Sequence record: PZ452589.1
Reading direction: 5' to 3' (one strand)
Source of the DNA: a phage
Length of the DNA stretch: 64,000 bases
The notes below the pieces were generated by a model. It was given only the letters and a program-made list of their open reading frames with translations. It ran no database searches and had not been told where the DNA came from. Both the position numbers and the translations under genes were made by a program. The first letter of the stretch is position 1, and each line of letters starts with the position of its first letter. This document shows, one piece after another, positions 2,216-60,847 of the stretch.

Positions 2216-2452
2216 TTATTTACCTATTACAGTTTTAATATGAGTTGTTCCACGTTCTTTAAGAGTGGAAAGTAATTTTTGGCATTTTTCTAAATCAGAT
2301 TTCCAACTATGTGGTCTATCAATACAAACCCAGTTTGACTTATAATACTGCTTCCATTTAGAGAAAAAATACTTCTTATACTCTACAGCAAATGAAATGT
2401 TCTCGTTGGAATAAGAACTAATTGCTGTGAGCTGTACCAAACGAAATTTCAT
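2216..2452 (-). CDS. hypothetical protein, 78 aa (31.2 position)
   Basis: ORF packed between 31.1-like ORF and cd. Confidence 0.55.
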   Translation of the reverse strand: MKFRLVQLTAISSYSNENISFAVEYKKYFFSKWKQYYKSNWVCIDRPHSWKSDLEKCQKLLSTLKERGTTHIKTVIGK

Positions 2453-3033
2453 TATTCACCACAGAATTCGTTGATATTTTCCCAGTTTAACTTATTCAAG
2501 TTTTTCTTAGGAACATTAAACACTTCAATACCTGCATTTCGCAGAATATCATCCCAGCCAGGTTTATTTTTATCGTATGTTTCGCAATAAACCAGCTTTT
2601 TAATTCCAGATTGAGCTATCGCTTTTGCGCAATCTGGACATGGAGAAAGTGTTACATACATAGTAGCACCTTCAATAGAAGAACCATTTCGTGCAGCAAA
2701 CAAAATTGCATTTAGTTCAGCATGAATTTCATTTTTAGATGACCATTCCGAGTGAGCACTACGATGTTCTTTCGCCAAGACAAAACGATCAGTTGAACCA
2801 AATGATACGCATTCAGGCTTATGACCTTGAATGATAGTATGTTTAGGCTTATTCAACAACCAACCTTGCTCAGCAGCATAATCACAACAGTTCACACCCC
2901 CTGCAGGTGAACCATTATATCCGGTAGAAATAATACGTCCATTCTTTTCAATTACTGCTCCTACCTTCCAGGAGCAACATTTTGATTCCTGCGATACTAA
3001 ATATGCAATTTGAAGTACTGTACTCGCTTTCAT
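2452..3033 (-). CDS. cd: dCMP deaminase, 193 aa
   Basis: HAELNAI and SPCPDCAKAI zinc-binding deaminase motifs; length equals T4 Cd. Confidence 0.9.
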   Translation of the reverse strand: MKASTVLQIAYLVSQESKCCSWKVGAVIEKNGRIISTGYNGSPAGGVNCCDYAAEQGWLLNKPKHTIIQGHKPECVSFGSTDRFVLAKEHRSAHSEWSSKNEIHAELNAILFAARNGSSIEGATMYVTLSPCPDCAKAIAQSGIKKLVYCETYDKNKPGWDDILRNAGIEVFNVPKKNLNKLNWENINEFCGE

Positions 3034-18539: not shown

Positions 18540-19172
18540 TCATAGCTGGCATAATTTGCAATACTCTGGGTCTTCGAGAGGTATCCAACCTGAGTTGAAA
18601 TACTTTACCATCGATTTAGCAGTTGTATCAGTTATATTTATATTACCTTTAACTCTTCGCCATCCAGGAGTTTTACCGTACAGATTAGAGGATAATAATA
18701 ACACATAATTCTCGTAAGCAATATGAGATAATTTCCAAGACTCTATATTAGCTCGTGATGTTTTCCAAGGTCTAAAATCGTCACGGTTCATATAATTAGC
18801 CAATCTCATATGCTCTCTAACTTCCGGGTCTTTGGCTGGATGAGTTTCACCACTCACACCAAATCCACCACCAGCATATACCAGATTAAAATAGTCTGGA
18901 TTATCTCTGGCATTTACTTCAAGTTGGTATTTTCGTTCTGCTTCAATAACATCCAAGTCATCATCAATTTGAATTATTTTAACGCTCGGTTTTTGAAGCA
19001 TTAGCGCATTCAAAAATCTTTTTTGTTTACATGAGCTCCAGTATTCCTTTCCGGAAGAGTCATATATTATTCCGTTCTCAAATGAGCAATTTAATTTACT
19101 ACCGATATAGTAGTATGGCGGAGTCTTATTTTTGACACGGTCTTCAAATGTAAACCAATATACTATATTCAT
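18540..19172 (-). CDS. segG: GIY-YIG-type homing endonuclease (segG-like), 210 aa
   Basis: N-terminal IVYWFTF..YYYIGSK GIY-YIG-like motif; located between genes 32 and 59 as T4 segG. Confidence 0.6.
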   Translation of the reverse strand: MNIVYWFTFEDRVKNKTPPYYYIGSKLNCSFENGIIYDSSGKEYWSSCKQKRFLNALMLQKPSVKIIQIDDDLDVIEAERKYQLEVNARDNPDYFNLVYAGGGFGVSGETHPAKDPEVREHMRLANYMNRDDFRPWKTSRANIESWKLSHIAYENYVLLLSSNLYGKTPGWRRVKGNINITDTTAKSMVKYFNSGWIPLEDPEYCKLCQL

Positions 19173-19173
19173 A

Positions 19174-19827
19174 TCAATACTTACAAGATTTCACAGTTTC
19201 AATGAAAACATTTTTAGCTTTCTGTGAATCAATATTTAAAATTTTTCTATAAGCCTTTAACTTTATAGAATAATTATTCCAGACTAAATTATCAGTCTGT
19301 TCATCATGTTTATCAATTATATTTAAAAATGAATCAAGCAAGATAAACGTCTCAAACGAAATTATGTTCGATTGCAGAAGTTTAAAAATATAACTTGATT
19401 GAACTTTTGGATTATATTCAAAAATTTCTTTAAAAGCAGAAACTTCAACTTTTTTACTAAAATAATAAATGTTGCGAATATCTTCTTCAAACTTAAATTT
19501 AATTTGCTTTAAGCGTCCGATATATTCACGATAAAACACAAGTGCATCAGCGTCAGAGATGTCACCAATCCAAGCATCTTGGTTAGCAACCAAATTACTT
19601 ATAAAGATTAAAGCAAGTTCCTTTAATTTATATTTTTCTGATAACTTCTGAAAAAAATACTTATCCCTTCGCTTTTGATAAGCGGCATCAGACACCCGCA
19701 TGCACCAATTATACTTAATAACATCATACTTTCCATTCATATGTTGTTTTATCATTAAGTATAATTTATAAACTGATTTACCATCAATGTATCTTTCACC
19801 ACCAGCAGGCATGCGGAGTTTAATCAT
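19174..19827 (-). CDS. 59: gp59 helicase loader, 217 aa
   Basis: sequence and length match remembered T4 gp59; synteny 32-59-33. Confidence 0.9.
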   Translation of the reverse strand: MIKLRMPAGGERYIDGKSVYKLYLMIKQHMNGKYDVIKYNWCMRVSDAAYQKRRDKYFFQKLSEKYKLKELALIFISNLVANQDAWIGDISDADALVFYREYIGRLKQIKFKFEEDIRNIYYFSKKVEVSAFKEIFEYNPKVQSSYIFKLLQSNIISFETFILLDSFLNIIDKHDEQTDNLVWNNYSIKLKAYRKILNIDSQKAKNVFIETVKSCKY

Positions 19828-55449: not shown

Positions 55450-55590
55450 TTACAATTTAGCGGCTTTCCAGAGTTGTTCAATAATCTCTTGGTCTATTTC
55501 TTTAGTTATTTCATTACGTAATAAAGCAGTAAGGGCTTTCGCCCTTTTCTTATTCAACTTTTTGAGTTGACGTTTATTTAAACGAGACAT
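55450..55590 (-). CDS. small basic protein, 46 aa (MSRLNKRQLKKLNKKRAKAL..)
   Basis: unlisted ORF between gene 56 and soc; ATG overlaps 56 stop by 1 nt; contains a GNRA hairpin. Confidence 0.4.
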   Translation of the reverse strand: MSRLNKRQLKKLNKKRAKALTALLRNEITKEIDQEIIEQLWKAAKL

Positions 55591-56108
55591 TAATAACCTC
55601 GGTCCTGACGAGCAAAGTTCTCGGCATTTTTCAGATAATAAAGTTTAAAGATTTCTTCTGCTGTAAGACCAAGACCTTGGAACATGTTCAGAACGAAATG
55701 GAGAATATCAATCATTTCAAACTTAATTTCCAGTTGGTCTTGTGGAGACAAATCAGTAATCAGAGTTTCACGACGTTCACCATGCTGCGACTTCCAAGGT
55801 TTCCATACAGCAGATGCGTCTTTTTCACCATTACTCATACCACCAAGAGAAGTCAGAAGTTCACGGAATTCATCATCAATATAATCTTTCTGATTACGCA
55901 GCCAATCAACAACTTCACCTGCAGTAGCCAAATCATCAGGATGACGATTATATTCAGGTTTATCTTTAGCTAAACGAACCTGTAAAGATTTCTGCATATC
56001 AAGCATAACTTGCAGCGGGTCTTTTTCATCACCGAGAATATCCCAATATTCATTTTGAGCTTTATCAGCGCCTTCAATCAGTTGTGAACATTCATTAAAG
56101 TAAGCCAT
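55590..56108 (-). CDS. 56: dCTPase / dCDPase gp56 (MazG-like), ~172 aa
   Basis: MAYFNECSQLIEGADKAQNEYWDILGDEKDP..; start at internal Met with AAAGGAAAAATA SD (track ORF extends to 56201). Confidence 0.85.
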   Translation of the reverse strand: MAYFNECSQLIEGADKAQNEYWDILGDEKDPLQVMLDMQKSLQVRLAKDKPEYNRHPDDLATAGEVVDWLRNQKDYIDDEFRELLTSLGGMSNGEKDASAVWKPWKSQHGERRETLITDLSPQDQLEIKFEMIDILHFVLNMFQGLGLTAEEIFKLYYLKNAENFARQDRGY

Positions 56109-56179
56109 TATTTTTCCTTTCAATTCATGGGTTAGTAGATTAATTATACAATAAATATATAAAGCAATAAGGAGGACAT

Positions 56180-56380
56180 ATGGTACAAAAATTAATGGCA
56201 CTTGTTAATGCCATAAAAGGTAATAAAAAACGTATAGCTTTTACTATTTCTGCTATGGTAGGAATTTTACTCTGGAACTTTATTCTATCACCTGTTGCAA
56301 TTGCGCATGGTGTTAATATTCCAGTAGTTACTCTTGATACATTCGTAGATCTAGCATTTGCTTTAGTTGGGTTAATTTAA
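56180..56380 (+). CDS. plus-strand small hydrophobic protein, 66 aa
   Basis: AAGGAGG SD 4 nt before ATG; two hydrophobic segments; only plus-strand ORF in this minus-strand region; ends convergently at gene 61 stop. Confidence 0.45.
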   Translation: MVQKLMALVNAIKGNKKRIAFTISAMVGILLWNFILSPVAIAHGVNIPVVTLDTFVDLAFALVGLI

Positions 56381-57405
56381 ATCTTGGCATATTTAGATAA
56401 CCGCATTTTAGCCATTAACCCCTGGGCAATATTATTTTTCATATATTCCATAATTTGTTCAGGGGTTGCACCTTCCTTTCTAATCATATCATTAACATCT
56501 TTTGATTTCCAGGGAGATTTATCCCAAAACATAACCCTTTCTCCTGCATCAACTAATTTAGTCATTCGCTTGATAGTGTCAGGGTGACGAGGTTCATTAT
56601 CTAAAACCCACACTCGTCTATCTTTAAATGGAACAACTTCTAGGTCTAATTGACCACCCGTAATAGCTATACCATTTTCAATAAAAAGTGAATCTATAGG
56701 TCCTTCTAGAACATATACATCGCCATCTTTAACTCGTTCGACTCCATAGATTTTTGTTGCCTCAGGATAAGCTTTGATGGTGATATATTTTTGAGGAGCA
56801 TCTTTCTTTAATGCACGTCCTTGAAAAGACTCAGCTTTTCCATTAGCATTATAAATTGGAATAACAAGACGAGGCTCAGAAATTTCCTTTTTGTATGTTC
56901 CCGGTGCTATGCTATTAACTAATTTAGGCCATTCGGTTGTAAACCAAAGATATTTCCATTTATCCTTTGGAATACAACGAGCTTTTACATATTTTATAAT
57001 TGGATGGTCTTCCGCCAGTTTATCTAATCTAACGCATGACGGAAGAGATTTAATTATTTTCTTCTCAGGTTGTTTAGGAAGTTCTTTAGGTTTTTCTACT
57101 GGACGACTTTTACCTTTTTCTTTTCTTATTTCAAAGATATACTCACGATATAAATCAGGTTCAAACTCCTTTAAATATATTCCGATTGGCGCATGATAGT
57201 TACAGTTATAACAATGGATATTTCCTTCATTATTATCACCATAATACCATCCACGAGCTTTATTCTGATCGGTTTTTGAATCTCCACAAACAGGGCATCT
57301 AAACCGCAATTTAAAAGTTGAACTATTATTTACTTGTGTGAATTTAGGTAAATGAGCTAATGCACGATACGCAAACTCATTATCAATCCAAGGTATTGAT
57401 GACAT
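56377..57405 (-). CDS. 61: DNA primase gp61, 342 aa
   Basis: N-terminal zinc ribbon CPVCGDS..CYNC and TOPRIM region; length equals T4 gp61. Confidence 0.9.
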   Translation of the reverse strand: MSSIPWIDNEFAYRALAHLPKFTQVNNSSTFKLRFRCPVCGDSKTDQNKARGWYYGDNNEGNIHCYNCNYHAPIGIYLKEFEPDLYREYIFEIRKEKGKSRPVEKPKELPKQPEKKIIKSLPSCVRLDKLAEDHPIIKYVKARCIPKDKWKYLWFTTEWPKLVNSIAPGTYKKEISEPRLVIPIYNANGKAESFQGRALKKDAPQKYITIKAYPEATKIYGVERVKDGDVYVLEGPIDSLFIENGIAITGGQLDLEVVPFKDRRVWVLDNEPRHPDTIKRMTKLVDAGERVMFWDKSPWKSKDVNDMIRKEGATPEQIMEYMKNNIAQGLMAKMRLSKYAKI

Positions 57406-57407
57406 TT

Positions 57408-57572
57408 TTACTCTTCTTTTTCTTTAGATTCCTCTTTCTTCTTTTTAGGAATCTGTTCAGGACCTTTATTTACTACAGCGCCTGACGTTGTTCCAGTAGA
57501 GATATTTTCAGGATTACCACCTGAATCTCCAGCGACCATATCTTCTTTGATAAATTCTTTATATGTTTTCAT
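57408..57572 (-). CDS. small hydrophilic protein, 54 aa (MKTYKEFIKEDMVAGDSGG..)
   Basis: unlisted ORF between 61.1-like gene and gene 61. Confidence 0.4.
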   Translation of the reverse strand: MKTYKEFIKEDMVAGDSGGNPENISTGTTSGAVVNKGPEQIPKKKKEESKEKEE

Positions 57573-57573
57573 A

Positions 57574-57930
57574 TTAACCTCTATTCATAAAAGCATTAAA
57601 AATTTGGTCATCAATAGATGGAATAGCAACCTTTTCGGCATCATTTAGCAAATCATTAATTTCATCAGATAGCATAACACATGTGCCTTTATTTCCTGTA
57701 ATTGTTACTGCACAATTACGAACGTTTTCTTTATCAAATTTTAGGTTAATATTTTCGTAGTGAAAATCCTTTAATGCCGAATATATCTTTAAAATGAAAT
57801 TGTCTTTTACTACAATAAACCCAACCTCACTATTAAAACGTGGTTCATGGAAACTGTAATAAACCTTTTCATCTATAAAATCGTATGAAATTTTTTCCAT
57901 TTTTAAATATGAAAATTCAGAACTATACAT
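57574..57930 (-). CDS. hypothetical protein, 118 aa (61.1 position) with shared C-terminal tail
   Basis: C-terminus ..AIPSIDDQIFNAFMNRG nearly identical to that of next ORF. Confidence 0.55.
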   Translation of the reverse strand: MYSSEFSYLKMEKISYDFIDEKVYYSFHEPRFNSEVGFIVVKDNFILKIYSALKDFHYENINLKFDKENVRNCAVTITGNKGTCVMLSDEINDLLNDAEKVAIPSIDDQIFNAFMNRG

Positions 57931-57931
57931 A

Positions 57932-58573
57932 TTAACCTTTATTCATAAAAGCATTAAAAATTTGATCGTCAATAGAAACTTTTACTTTAGGCTGTTCTTC
58001 AAACGTTAATTCATATCCACATATTACAATTTTGTGATCGATACCAAAATACACAGAAGCAATATTATTAATATTATTTTCAGTGAAATCTAAATCAACA
58101 TCAATATCTTTTTGACTAACGCTCAAAGGATAATTAATACGAATAATTCGATTATCTTTAACAAAGATTCCACCGACATACTCTGTGCTGCGTTTAAAGT
58201 TTACACGTTTCCTAAATGAAAAATATTCAGGTTCTTTATGGGCTCGACTCATAGGGCTTAAAGTGTATTCCGAATATGAAATATCAAATCCTACACCTTC
58301 AATATGAGCCAAAGTGTCATGATTAAACCAATTATAATCGTATGCCAAATCCATTAAATTGTAATATGTGAAAGGCACCGGATTAACATCATATGTTGTA
58401 CCTTTAAAATCTGCCCAGGCAACGATTTCGTTATCTTTAACAATTACAAAAATTGTGTCAATAAGATATCCACGGTTATTTTCATCAGGCGTTATATTAT
58501 AACATTGTGCATCAGGAAATTTACCGTATTTAAACGGTGGATTTTTGTGCATATAATAAATCATATTATTCAC
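57932..58573 (-). CDS. hypothetical protein, 213 aa (61.2 position) with shared C-terminal tail
   Basis: C-terminus ..KVSIDDQIFNAFMNKG. Confidence 0.55.
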   Translation of the reverse strand: MNNMIYYMHKNPPFKYGKFPDAQCYNITPDENNRGYLIDTIFVIVKDNEIVAWADFKGTTYDVNPVPFTYYNLMDLAYDYNWFNHDTLAHIEGVGFDISYSEYTLSPMSRAHKEPEYFSFRKRVNFKRSTEYVGGIFVKDNRIIRINYPLSVSQKDIDVDLDFTENNINNIASVYFGIDHKIVICGYELTFEEQPKVKVSIDDQIFNAFMNKG

Positions 58574-58859
58574 CTGTGATTTCGGTTACGATATTTTTGT
58601 TATTAAAGTTTTTATCGCAATACAGAACATAATTATACTGCATTACACCACCAGACTTAAGTTGTTTTTGCACTTCAGCTTTCATTTTAGGACGATCGCG
58701 CTCAACAATATTCATAATATCCGCTTCAATTTGAGTTTCAACTTCAGTCTGATCTGCAGTCATAGACCATTCACACAAGTCTTTATCATATCCTGCCATA
58801 GCAGGCTGAGCAGCACAAGAAGCCAAAGTAAAAATTGTAGCAAAAATAAATTTTTTCAT
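58566..58859 (-). CDS. sp: Spackle periplasmic lysozyme inhibitor / superinfection exclusion protein, 97 aa
   Basis: 97 aa with cleavable signal peptide MKKFIFATIFTLASCAAQPAMA; position as T4 sp (61.3). Confidence 0.75.
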   Translation of the reverse strand: MKKFIFATIFTLASCAAQPAMAGYDKDLCEWSMTADQTEVETQIEADIMNIVERDRPKMKAEVQKQLKSGGVMQYNYVLYCDKNFNNKNIVTEITGE

Positions 58860-58919
58860 GATAATCTCCTCAGTAGTTTATGTTTATATAGTATCTCAAT
58901 TTCCAACAAAAGTAAACAG

Positions 58920-59219
58920 CTATTTTAAAACTTCTGCATAATCACATGTTACAAACTGTTTCTCTAGCTTAACGATCTTACGAAAATGCCTTTTACACTG
59001 ACGAATCTGCCTCTTCGTAGGACGTACAGCAAACTTAATAAATTCCACTCGACCAAATGGAGGACTTTCTTCTGCTGGAATATCTAACACCAATTCCCAC
59101 GTATCTGCAACAAGTGCTTTGAATTGAGTATTTTTCCTGACATTATACGGAGTAGGTTTAAATAAAACAATATGCATATTATCCTCGGCAATCCACTTCG
59201 CACACTTTCTTGTCATCAA
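58920..59219 (-). CDS. hypothetical protein, 99 aa (61.4 position)
   Basis: ORF overlapping dmd by 41 nt. Confidence 0.5.
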   Translation of the reverse strand: MMTRKCAKWIAEDNMHIVLFKPTPYNVRKNTQFKALVADTWELVLDIPAEESPPFGRVEFIKFAVRPTKRQIRQCKRHFRKIVKLEKQFVTCDYAEVLK

Positions 59220-59361
59220 TGAAAGCTTTAACTAATGCTTTATTAACTTCAGCATATTGAGTAGTAGCCCATTGAACGTCATCTTTCATCATTGTGATTT
59301 CTTTAGTAAACATGCTTTCATTCTTAAACCACCCCATAAAAACTACCTTTACCAATTCCAT
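59179..59361 (-). CDS. dmd: Dmd antitoxin (inhibitor of host RnlA/LsoA toxins), 60 aa
   Basis: 60-aa ORF MELVKVVFMGWFKNESMF.. immediately downstream of gene 41, with own early promoter, as T4 dmd (61.5). Confidence 0.7.
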   Translation of the reverse strand: MELVKVVFMGWFKNESMFTKEITMMKDDVQWATTQYAEVNKALVKAFIDDKKVCEVDCRG

Positions 59362-59390
59362 AACAATCTCCTCATTTAACCAACAAGACT

Positions 59391-59420
59391 ACTATACCAT
59401 AGTCTTGTCAGTTTGTAAAC
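59391..59420 (-). promoter_or_regulatory. early-promoter-like element (GTTTACA-N17-TATAGT) upstream of dmd
   Basis: minus-strand GTTTACA 59414-59420, TATAGT 59391-59396; -10 lies within an 8-bp inverted repeat caagacta/tagtcttg. Confidence 0.45.
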
Positions 59421-60847
59421 TAAAATTTTAATTCATTTGCCAAAGCATCTAACTGAGCTCGAGTGGATTCATTTCTTTGATAGCGATTCTGTTCAGCCTG
59501 AATCTGTTGTGAACCTGCTACTTCACTCACTTCGGTTGGAGTAGAATCTTGTTCAATTTCTACCCATTTTTGATTTCCTTTTTGAACACCCATCAAAAAC
59601 TTATTCCACTTATTCTTATCACCATATCGTGATTTGATTTGCTTAATAAGTTGTTGTTCAGCAGCTGCCAACTCCTCGGTTTCAATGACCGCAAGCATAA
59701 AATCGGCTGTCGCTGGAAGACCAGCAGATTCTGCGATATCACTCATGTTAACATCGGAAGAGTCCCAAGCTTGTTTACCGACCTGTGCTGCAGTCCAAAG
59801 AACAGTTTCGGTTTCAACAGCAAGAGCACGTAATTCCTCTGCAATGGCTTTAACAGTTGTGTAACTATTTTCTGAGTAAACTCTAATGCGACAAGATTTA
59901 CAAATACCTAGATAGTCGACAATAATGATCGTTGGAACAAAATTCTTTTTGAGCTTCAATTCATTCAAGAGAGACCTGAATGTATTAGCGTCTGCTCCAC
60001 CAGTGGGATACTGTTTAACGATTAAACGACCGAGGGTAGATTTCTCACGCCATTTTTCCATTTTTCCTTTATACTCAGCGTAAGAAATATGTCCATCATC
60101 AATATCATCAAGAGAAACATCGAGCATATTAGCATCAATACGTTTAGCGCAGACTTCTTCTGCCATTTCCATAGAGATATAAAGAACGTTATGACCAAGC
60201 TGCAAATAATCTGCTGCTAATGAACAAAGTCCTAATGATTTACCAACGTTAACGCCAGCCATTAAAACGTTCAGTGTTCCTGTCTCAGCTCCGCCTTTAG
60301 TAATTTTGTTTAGAATTCTGAGTTTAAATGGAACTTTACGAGCTTTATTCATATAAGATAGCCAGCGTGCTTCGTAGTCATCCATCCAATCATGACCAAC
60401 GTAGCTATCAAATGAAATTGATAATGCTTGACGCATGATGTCAGGAATAGCACCAACATCCGGCATTTTCTTATTTCGTTTTTCCGGAGGAAGCTCAGCA
60501 TTAGTTTGAATTTCGATTATTTTAGACGTAGCATTAAACATCGCCCTTTGCTGAACATATTTTTCTGTTTCTTTTACTAACCAGCTGTGGTCTTCCGGAG
60601 AATCAGCCAGTTTTGAAATAAGTGTTTTTACACCAGAATATTCTGTTTCAGTAAATGAACTATTTTCTAATGCAACATTTAACGCATTAATAGATGGAAC
60701 GCTATGGTACTCATTAACATGAGATTTAATTAATTTGAATGTATTTTTAGCTGGACCACTTTCAAAATATTCTGAATCCATATATGGCCAAACTTTTGAA
60801 AAATAAGCTTGATCAAATATAAGATGAGAAAGAATAATTTCTACCAC
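59420..60847 (-). CDS. 41: replicative DNA helicase gp41 (DnaB-like), 475 aa
   Basis: Walker A ..GVNVGKS..; length equals T4 gp41. Confidence 0.92.
   Translation of the reverse strand: MVEIILSHLIFDQAYFSKVWPYMDSEYFESGPAKNTFKLIKSHVNEYHSVPSINALNVALENSSFTETEYSGVKTLISKLADSPEDHSWLVKETEKYVQQRAMFNATSKIIEIQTNAELPPEKRNKKMPDVGAIPDIMRQALSISFDSYVGHDWMDDYEARWLSYMNKARKVPFKLRILNKITKGGAETGTLNVLMAGVNVGKSLGLCSLAADYLQLGHNVLYISMEMAEEVCAKRIDANMLDVSLDDIDDGHISYAEYKGKMEKWREKSTLGRLIVKQYPTGGADANTFRSLLNELKLKKNFVPTIIIVDYLGICKSCRIRVYSENSYTTVKAIAEELRALAVETETVLWTAAQVGKQAWDSSDVNMSDIAESAGLPATADFMLAVIETEELAAAEQQLIKQIKSRYGDKNKWNKFLMGVQKGNQKWVEIEQDSTPTEVSEVAGSQQIQAEQNRYQRNESTRAQLDALANELKF

Follow-up and report, generated by a model that had tools for sequence, protein, structure and literature searches.

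A 49-bp repeat in a T-even phage as the probable shared 3'-end module of two neighbouring AdfA-family genes

The question raised by the locus described here is why two adjacent phage genes should end in almost the same stretch of DNA. The locus lies in sequence record PZ452589.1, analysed as a single stretch of 64,000 nucleotides (nt) referred to below as the window; it belongs to a T-even (Tequatrovirus) phage, with Salmonella phage SG1 as the best match for the region at 99.2%. One of the two genes, adfA, encodes a member of the family of AdfA, which is among the few known phage inhibitors of the DarTG toxin-antitoxin defence, and the other encodes a protein of 118 amino acids (aa). The names adfA and anti-DarT factor A for gene 61.2 are those of earlier studies (PMC9391042, PMC11825919). 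The best explanation, which we consider probable, is that the repeat constitutes a 3'-end module shared by two AdfA-family genes and carrying three overlapping codes, namely a C-terminal peptide, the ribosome-binding site and start codon of the following gene, and the middle promoter P61.

The repeat, the two proteins and their common tail

A repeat search of the window returned a 49-nt direct repeat whose two copies are identical at 46 of 49 positions, with 358 bp between their starts (Table 1). Only these two copies were returned by a pattern search allowing 3 mismatches, and 100 dinucleotide-preserving shuffles yielded no match, so that the repeat reported in the initial annotation is borne out by two independent searches and by the shuffles. 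On the coding strand it reads TCT ATT GAY GAY CAA ATT TTT AAT GCT TTT ATG AAT A(G/A)A GGT TAA T ATG, which corresponds to 14 codons, a stop codon, a single T and the start codon of the next gene. The tail peptides encoded by copies 1 and 2 are SIDDQIFNAFMNRG and SIDDQIFNAFMNKG, respectively, in agreement with the terminal peptide previously described for both proteins. The copies differ by one non-synonymous change (AGA/AAA, arginine/lysine) and two synonymous ones (GAT/GAC and GAC/GAT). An RNA element was ruled out as the identity of the repeat, as there is no Rfam match at E<=1 within 56300-59500 and the folding of both copies is ordinary (z-scores of -0.9 to +0.7).

The two proteins had been regarded as otherwise unrelated, a view that the following comparisons speak against. 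With the tail included, the 118-aa protein matches AdfA in BLASTP at E=7e-12, the tail supplying much of the score; without the tail, the bodies still align at 32% identity over 79 aa (E=2e-4), in a colinear match to AdfA residues 111-186. The Pfam family PF23813 scores 456.7 bits on the window AdfA and 34.1 bits on the 118-aa protein (gathering threshold 27; profile positions 113-211). Additionally, database clusters of the 118-aa protein carry a precomputed PF23813 assignment, its PHROG family (phrog_4122) and that of AdfA cross-hit each other, and the GenBank record of phage RB32 labels the short gene, RB32ORF033c, as 'similar to gp61.2'. AlphaFold2 predicts the 118-aa protein as a single confident domain, with a predicted local distance difference test score (pLDDT) of 83 overall and >90 in the domain, and a predicted template modelling score of 0.72. 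The predicted order is five strands, a helix, a strand, a helix, a linker (residues 102-104; pLDDT <50) and a tail helix (residues 106-115; pLDDT 53-60). The full-length model of AdfA is poor (pLDDT 61.6) and was used solely for the order of secondary-structure elements, in which the strand-helix pattern occurs twice and is followed by the same terminal helix; five strands and then a helix are the order predicted in common for both proteins. Structure searches returned no solved structure or convincing fold match. On these comparisons the 118-aa gene and adfA appear to be tandem, distant paralogs of the AdfA family, the short paralog apparently corresponding to the C-terminal domain of AdfA.

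The family is a narrow one, since an exhaustive profile search of 1.84 billion representatives returned only 10 clusters. Its distant members comprise P0021, with 59% identity to AdfA, the single-domain proteins P0023, P0024 and P0028, and a type of 122-146 aa found in Dhakavirus; the genes of all of these sit immediately after sp and ahead of the 61.1/61 genes, and all of them keep the nonapeptide DDQIFNAFM exactly. Body identity to the 118-aa protein falls to 24-48% in the tail-bearing distant members, and among members the linker preceding the tail varies in length by up to 25 aligned positions. In Mosigvirus, Dhakavirus and more distant T4-like contigs, the codons of the tail have changed synonymously (GAT/GAC, CAA/CAG, ATT/ATA, TTT/TTC, AAT/AAC, GCT/GCA/GCC, AGA/CGA and TAA/TGA), and the nine-residue core is without amino-acid change, with the exception of a D-to-V substitution in a 41-aa fragment. 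In the Dhakavirus type, the divergence of the tail (~10%) equals that of the body. Two contigs, L028 and L035, contain an independent tandem pair in which a Dhakavirus-type gene of 145/168 aa is followed by a 118-like gene of 119/122 aa; both genes are tailed, and the two tails differ at 3-4 synonymous sites.

A search for the peptide on other phage proteins had been proposed as a check, and degenerate-codon scans of IMG/VR and of a metagenome collection found it on the same three body types only; as such scans depend on the presence of the motif, and the profile is at its strongest in the tail, ascertainment favours tail-bearing relatives. The peptide thus behaves as a conserved C-terminal motif, being invariant over widely diverged bodies while synonymous sites and linker length vary, and the earlier suggestion of a shared docking motif is plausible. 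DDQIFNAFM therefore seems, from the pattern of codon changes, to be under strong purifying selection at the protein level. Because the tail is invariant, is preceded by a variable linker and is placed with low confidence on a confident domain, it is most like a tethered interaction motif, and we infer a partner common to all family members; this partner may be the toxin, at a feature that does not vary, AdfA itself or something else that the members have in common. It was also observed that the linker stretch at 57614-57643, the 30 nt upstream of the tail (AEKVAIP versus AENITAP), is the most variable part of the 118-aa gene, with an identity of 0.73-0.77 among close relatives against >=0.93 elsewhere in the gene.

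Promoter and translation signals within the repeat

The T4 middle promoter P61 has its mapped start site at 19122 according to Table 1 of Hinton 2010 (PMC2988021), where it is attributed to Marshall, Sharma and Hinton 1999, and the middle-promoter consensus consists of a MotA box, (a/t)(a/t)(a/t)TGCTTtA, 12 +/- 1 bp and a -10 element (PMC2988021), for which TAnnnT was applied here. In the T4 coordinate system (NC_000866), validated with Pdam (TATAAT at -12..-7), gene 61.1 occupies 18966-19130 and gene 61.2 occupies 19132-19758. Positions -12..-7 of P61 are accordingly TAATAT, formed by the stop codon of 61.2, a single T and the first two bases (AT) of the 61.1 start codon; AATGCTTTT lies 12 bp upstream of this -10 element, within the codons N-A-F of the 61.2 tail, and the +1 nucleotide is an A located eight nucleotides inside 61.1. 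Both copies of the window repeat contain AATGCTTTT, a 12-bp spacing and TAATAT. Over the 27 bp of P61 and the start-site region, copy 1 is exactly that of T4 and copy 2 differs by one spacer base, G to A. By this identity, the last 27 bp of the repeat are P61, giving the window phage two copies of the promoter, both of which are predicted to be active. The record of phage Lutter annotates 27-bp promoters on both repeat copies. The initial annotation mentioned neither P61 nor a Shine-Dalgarno (SD) function of the last codons.

The degree of identity between the copies was compared with the codon usage of 31 long open reading frames (ORFs) of the window. Over all 14 synonymous codons, 2 synonymous differences were observed against 6.05 expected (P=0.017); the 3' part, the 27 nt of P61, shows 0 against 2.85 (P=0.018), and the 5' part of the tail shows 2 against 3.2 (P=0.30). 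Selection on the peptide together with an AT-rich codon bias would thus explain most of the identity, and the promoter or a recent exchange the rest.

The same segment contains signals for translation. AGAGG in the arginine-glycine codons and the adjoining TAATATG form the SD sequence and the stop-start junction of the following gene. The only variable residues of the tail are the last two, and their identity tracks the downstream gene. The tail ends in R-G (AGAGGT or CGAGGT) ahead of 61.1, a tifA-like gene or a 65-aa gene, and in K-G (AAAGGT) or R-D (AGAGAT or CGAGAT) in every case where a 118-type gene comes next, in Tequatrovirus as well as in Dhakavirus-like contigs; the latter pattern was seen at 57932-57940 of the window and in the relatives L005, L006, L009, L023, L028, L031, L032, L035 and L039. 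This tracking suggests that the constraint on the two codons comes chiefly from their part in a ribosome-binding site, and the substitutions suggest that the SD site is weakened ahead of the short 118-type paralog. In the distant T4-like contig L024 (4370-4390), the tail ends AGAGGCTAA and a second AGAGGCTAATG follows immediately, a 9-bp tandem duplication of the SD-stop segment.

Gene content among relatives and the explanations weighed

A megablast search with the locus returned 665 phage records, of which 299 contain the 118-aa body, almost always at >=95% identity, and 487 the much more diverse adfA body. By inclusion-exclusion, both genes are estimated to be present in ~150 records, the short gene only in ~145, adfA only in ~330 and neither in ~35, the presence of each gene being independent of that of the other. 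Four architectures are found: sp-adfA-118-61.1 in the window, shared by at least 111 records and, with a T4-like adfA allele, by RB32-type genomes; sp-adfA-61.1 in T4 and RB55; sp-118-61.1 in T2; and sp-61.1 in RB6. When the window is aligned to T4, the gap spans exactly one repeat unit (358 bp) and runs from within copy 2 to copy 1. Variation at the repeat, for which a comparison with relatives had been proposed, is thus established, and the features of a recombinogenic repeat are present, in the form of 46/49 direct repeats and relatives that differ by exactly one unit. After sp, T2 and RB6 read TTAGAGG(T/C)TA(G/A)TATG, which resembles the last 15 nt of the repeat and places every cassette boundary within the SD-start segment. 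Simple microhomology deletions leading from the two-gene form to the T2 and RB6 junctions were rejected, as the observed junction (GGTGAATAATTAGAGG...) differs from the predicted products. The adfA gene is itself a mosaic, ECP52 being one example. Short homologies are known to mediate amplification and deletion of this region in T4 (PMC9391042); homologous deletion or duplication could plausibly use the repeat as its substrate, and we infer that recombination has occurred at it.

Several side observations concern the same slot. T2, described as naturally lacking an adfA homolog (PMC11825919), contains only the 118-aa paralog there (L001 1775-2131), annotated in its record as 'gp61.2'. The record of the Yersinia phage phiD1 (L006 2147-3683) shows two copies of the 118-aa gene and a 33-aa remnant, each ending in the tail. 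An unannotated 73-aa ORF begins at the TAATATG junction after the AdfA-family tail in phage C6 (L004, ~2285-2503, minus strand) and in L028 (1875-2096); its product is homologous to the ToxN inhibitor TifA/61.4 (37% identity, E=3e-13), so that in Dhakavirus a tifA-like gene follows the AdfA-like gene.

In the explanation considered probable, adfA and its single-domain 118-aa paralog would fill, in tandem, the slot from sp to 61.1. The first code would be DDQIFNAFM, a predicted short helix behind a variable linker, maintained by selection on the protein and presumably acting as an interaction motif. The second would be provided by the R-G-stop codons and TATG, serving as SD sequence and stop-start junction and thereby coupling the translation of the next gene. 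The third, in Tequatrovirus, would be the MotA/AsiA-dependent P61 in the last 27 bp, with a start 8 nt inside 61.1 and serving the primase gene 61. The overlap of these codes would account for the near identity of the module despite the diverged gene bodies, and the two copies also form the direct repeat that marks the edges of a 358-bp cassette present in some T-even genomes only. Known biology, that is, tandem paralogs, a conserved C-terminus, translational coupling and a duplicated P61, would then largely explain the repeat.

Several observations weigh against this explanation. The Pfam model of AdfA misses the 118-aa protein once the tail is removed, and the hhalign comparison of the bodies, made with shallow alignments, is weak (E ~0.003, probability only ~10%). 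The Dhakavirus-type body has no significant similarity to AdfA (hhalign E=0.13), so that a portable tail may have been exchanged in that type; as a homolog of the AdfA N-domain it was rejected as not significant, its only match being a weak Foldseek hit to a protein of phage VR25. The peptide is not unusually amphipathic, and a strongly amphipathic helix was discarded as a description of the tail, the hydrophobic moment being the same as in shuffles. The codon-usage test rests on 14 codons (P ~0.02). Substitutions disrupt the MotA box in Mosigvirus (GCA) and most Dhakavirus-type tails (GCC), C6-like tails keeping GCT, and the promoter consequently accounts for nucleotide identity within Tequatrovirus only. 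Finally, the arrangement in phiD1 would be a tandem amplification through the repeat; it is the only such example, and its record contains N bases and may reflect an assembly artefact or a mixed population.

Three other explanations were considered. It is unlikely that the repeat is a mere scar of recent recombination or gene conversion, a shuffling junction with no function of its own. The synonymous identity beyond the codon-usage expectation agrees with such an origin, as do the 48/49 match between the copies in RB32-type genomes, the GAT/GAC variants common to the paralogs, the location of the edges of a variably present cassette in the repeat and the short-homology recombination documented for this region of T4 (PMC9391042). 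However, the peptide is unchanged in genera with 5-7 of 49 DNA positions altered and with bodies only 24-48% identical to the 118-aa protein, both tails are kept in the L028 and L035 tandem pairs with no homogenisation, and the excess identity is limited to the 27 nt of the mapped promoter. As a sole explanation the scar is largely refuted by the cross-genus conservation with synonymous change. The recombination junction proposed in the initial annotation therefore stands in so far as near-identical repeats bound a cassette that varies among relatives; it does not explain an excess identity confined to the promoter or a peptide conserved across genera.

Little probability is likewise assigned to conservation purely at the nucleotide level, with the peptide as a passive by-product of P61 and the SD/start signals. 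These signals take up the last 27-30 nt, the differences between the copies, apart from the spacer base, all fall outside them, and the final two residues follow the downstream gene (K-G/R-D before a 118-type gene, R-G elsewhere). In contrast, the changes from GCT to GCA or GCC break the MotA box in Mosigvirus and most Dhakavirus-type tails with the amino acids remaining identical, and the seven 5' codons (SIDDQIF), which lie outside the promoter, are equally invariant as protein. Most improbable of the three is that the tail binds the gp45 sliding clamp or another replisome hub, as do the C-termini of gp43, gp33 and gp55. In its favour, the tail is short and conserved, has a hydrophobic/aromatic character and ends the protein after a flexible linker, the genes sit between the primase and helicase genes, and there is a loose likeness to the RB69 polymerase tail (LFDMF, compared with IFNAF). 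The clamp-binding likeness suggested earlier is nevertheless unsupported by the sequence pattern, since T4 gp43 ends ASLDFLFG and the consensus (S/T)LDFL(F/L/Y) is spaced differently and located at the extreme C-terminus, whereas the tail DDQIFNAFMNRG has three residues (N-R-G) after its hydrophobic block; moreover, the known activity of AdfA is the binding of the DarT1 toxin (PMC11825919) rather than a role in replication.

Beyond the shared module, a wider reading can be offered tentatively, as possible and somewhat doubtful. The tail could be a portable docking peptide shared by fast-evolving anti-toxin domains (two-domain AdfA, the 118-aa type and the Dhakavirus 122-146-aa type), its partner being a conserved site of DarT-like toxins or a phage or host hub; the 118-aa protein could be a second anti-toxin factor, and the two-domain AdfA could have arisen by fusion of tandem single-domain genes, like the tandem genes here and in L028 and L035. 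If this reading were correct, phages described as lacking adfA, such as T2, would possess a short version of it.

Genes of the locus and comparison with known systems

All genes of the locus are on the minus strand (Table 1). The size of 118 aa given in the initial annotation stands; the 213 aa given for AdfA would require a GTG start at 58573, three codons upstream of the ATG at 58564, with which homologues agree and from which the protein is 210 aa long. The sp-adfA junction (58561-58576) has the same TAATATG stop-start arrangement as both repeat copies (GGTGAATAATATG). At 55590-56380, gene 56 (dCTPase) adjoins gene 61, and a small plus-strand ORF (56180-56380, dam.1/RB69ORF029w-like) is the sole ORF between them; the dam methyltransferase gene, present at this position in T4, is absent there from the window.

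Table 1. Positions of the genes, repeat copies and promoters of the locus in the window
Feature	Position	Strand	Details
Gene 61, DNA primase	56377..57405	(-)	Gene served by P61
Gene 61.1, 54 aa	57408..57572	(-)	Own SD (AGAGG) and ATG within repeat copy 1
Short AdfA-family paralog, 118 aa (RB32ORF033c type, phrog_4122)	57574..57930	(-)	Single domain, linker, tail helix (predicted)
adfA / gene 61.2, anti-DarT factor A family, two-domain form	57932..58564	(-)	PF23813; annotated as 61.2 in T4 and RB55
sp (spackle, 61.3)	58566..58859	(-)	Upstream edge of the AdfA-family slot in all relatives examined
tifA (61.4)	58920..59177	(-)	Anti-toxin island member, context
dmd	59179..59361	(-)	Anti-toxin island member, context
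Gene 41, helicase	59420..60847	(-)	
Repeat copy 1	57570..57618	(-)	Final 14 codons and stop of the 118-aa gene, T, ATG of 61.1
Repeat copy 2	57928..57976	(-)	Final 14 codons and stop of adfA (61.2), T, ATG of the 118-aa gene
P61 middle promoter (copy 1)	57571..57597	(-)	MotA box AATGCTTTT 57589-57597, 12-bp spacer, -10 TAATAT 57571-57576; start equivalent to T4 19122 at 57564
Second P61-type promoter (copy 2), predicted	57929..57955	(-)	MotA box 57947-57955, spacer ATGAATAAAGGT, -10 TAATAT 57929-57934

In the literature searched, there is no mention that the tail is invariant throughout the family, that the 118-aa gene is a short relative of AdfA or that P61 is duplicated. An invariant peptide behind a variable linker offers a specific region to mutate and a specific bait peptide. 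T2-type phages, treated as lacking adfA, carry the short paralog, which matters for the reading of DarTG resistance experiments. By the inclusion-exclusion estimate, P61 is duplicated in ~150 sequenced T-even phages, which may alter how 61.1 and the primase are expressed in the middle mode. The locus also illustrates how a cassette in the T4 anti-toxin island is gained and lost in nature.

Among the known systems, AdfA itself (T4 gp61.2, PF23813) is the closest to the 118-aa gene, which has the same tail, occupies the same slot adjoining sp and aligns to the C-terminal domain of AdfA; it differs in having one domain where AdfA has two, with bodies just 32% identical. Specificity for DarT1 has been mapped to body position 164 (RB69 numbering), where the T4-type His neutralises DarT1 and the RB69-type Arg does not, and AdfA(R164H) binds DarT1 in a two-hybrid assay (PMC11825919). 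The AdfA of the window has neither the neutralising nor the non-neutralising residue and carries Asn at this position (NNINNIAS; codon 58064-58066, minus strand), and the 118-aa paralog has no alignable His or Arg there. The Asn164 allele occurs, in a small sample, in genomes that also carry the 118-aa paralog.

The promoter resembles P61 of T4 over the MotA box, spacer, -10 element and start region, to the extent given above for each copy. It differs in that the window phage has two predicted copies, 358 bp apart, and a transcript from copy 2, with a start-site equivalent at ~57922, would begin within the 118-aa ORF and, in contrast to one from P61 proper, yield an mRNA with an intact 61.1 start.

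With the dmd-tifA-adfA anti-toxin island of T4 (Srikant et al. 2022, PMC9391042), the locus shares its position and gene order. That study shows segments being gained and lost by way of short homologies and concerns laboratory amplification of dmd-tifA by microhomologies of 6-10 bp, whereas the window locus represents natural variation, involves an AdfA paralog and has a 49-bp repeat at the edges. A further likeness exists to the early-promoter stem-loop (PeSL) cassettes of Comeau et al. 2014, in which a short repeated regulatory sequence flanks a dispensable gene whose presence or absence is bounded by the repeats. A cassette of the PeSL type was nonetheless rejected for this locus: no terminator-like site occurs within 56300-59500, and the 49-bp repeat has no stem-loop/terminator and no sigma-70 -35 element. 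In place of the sigma-70-like early promoter of an intergenic PeSL, the repeat holds a middle-type promoter and is mostly coding.

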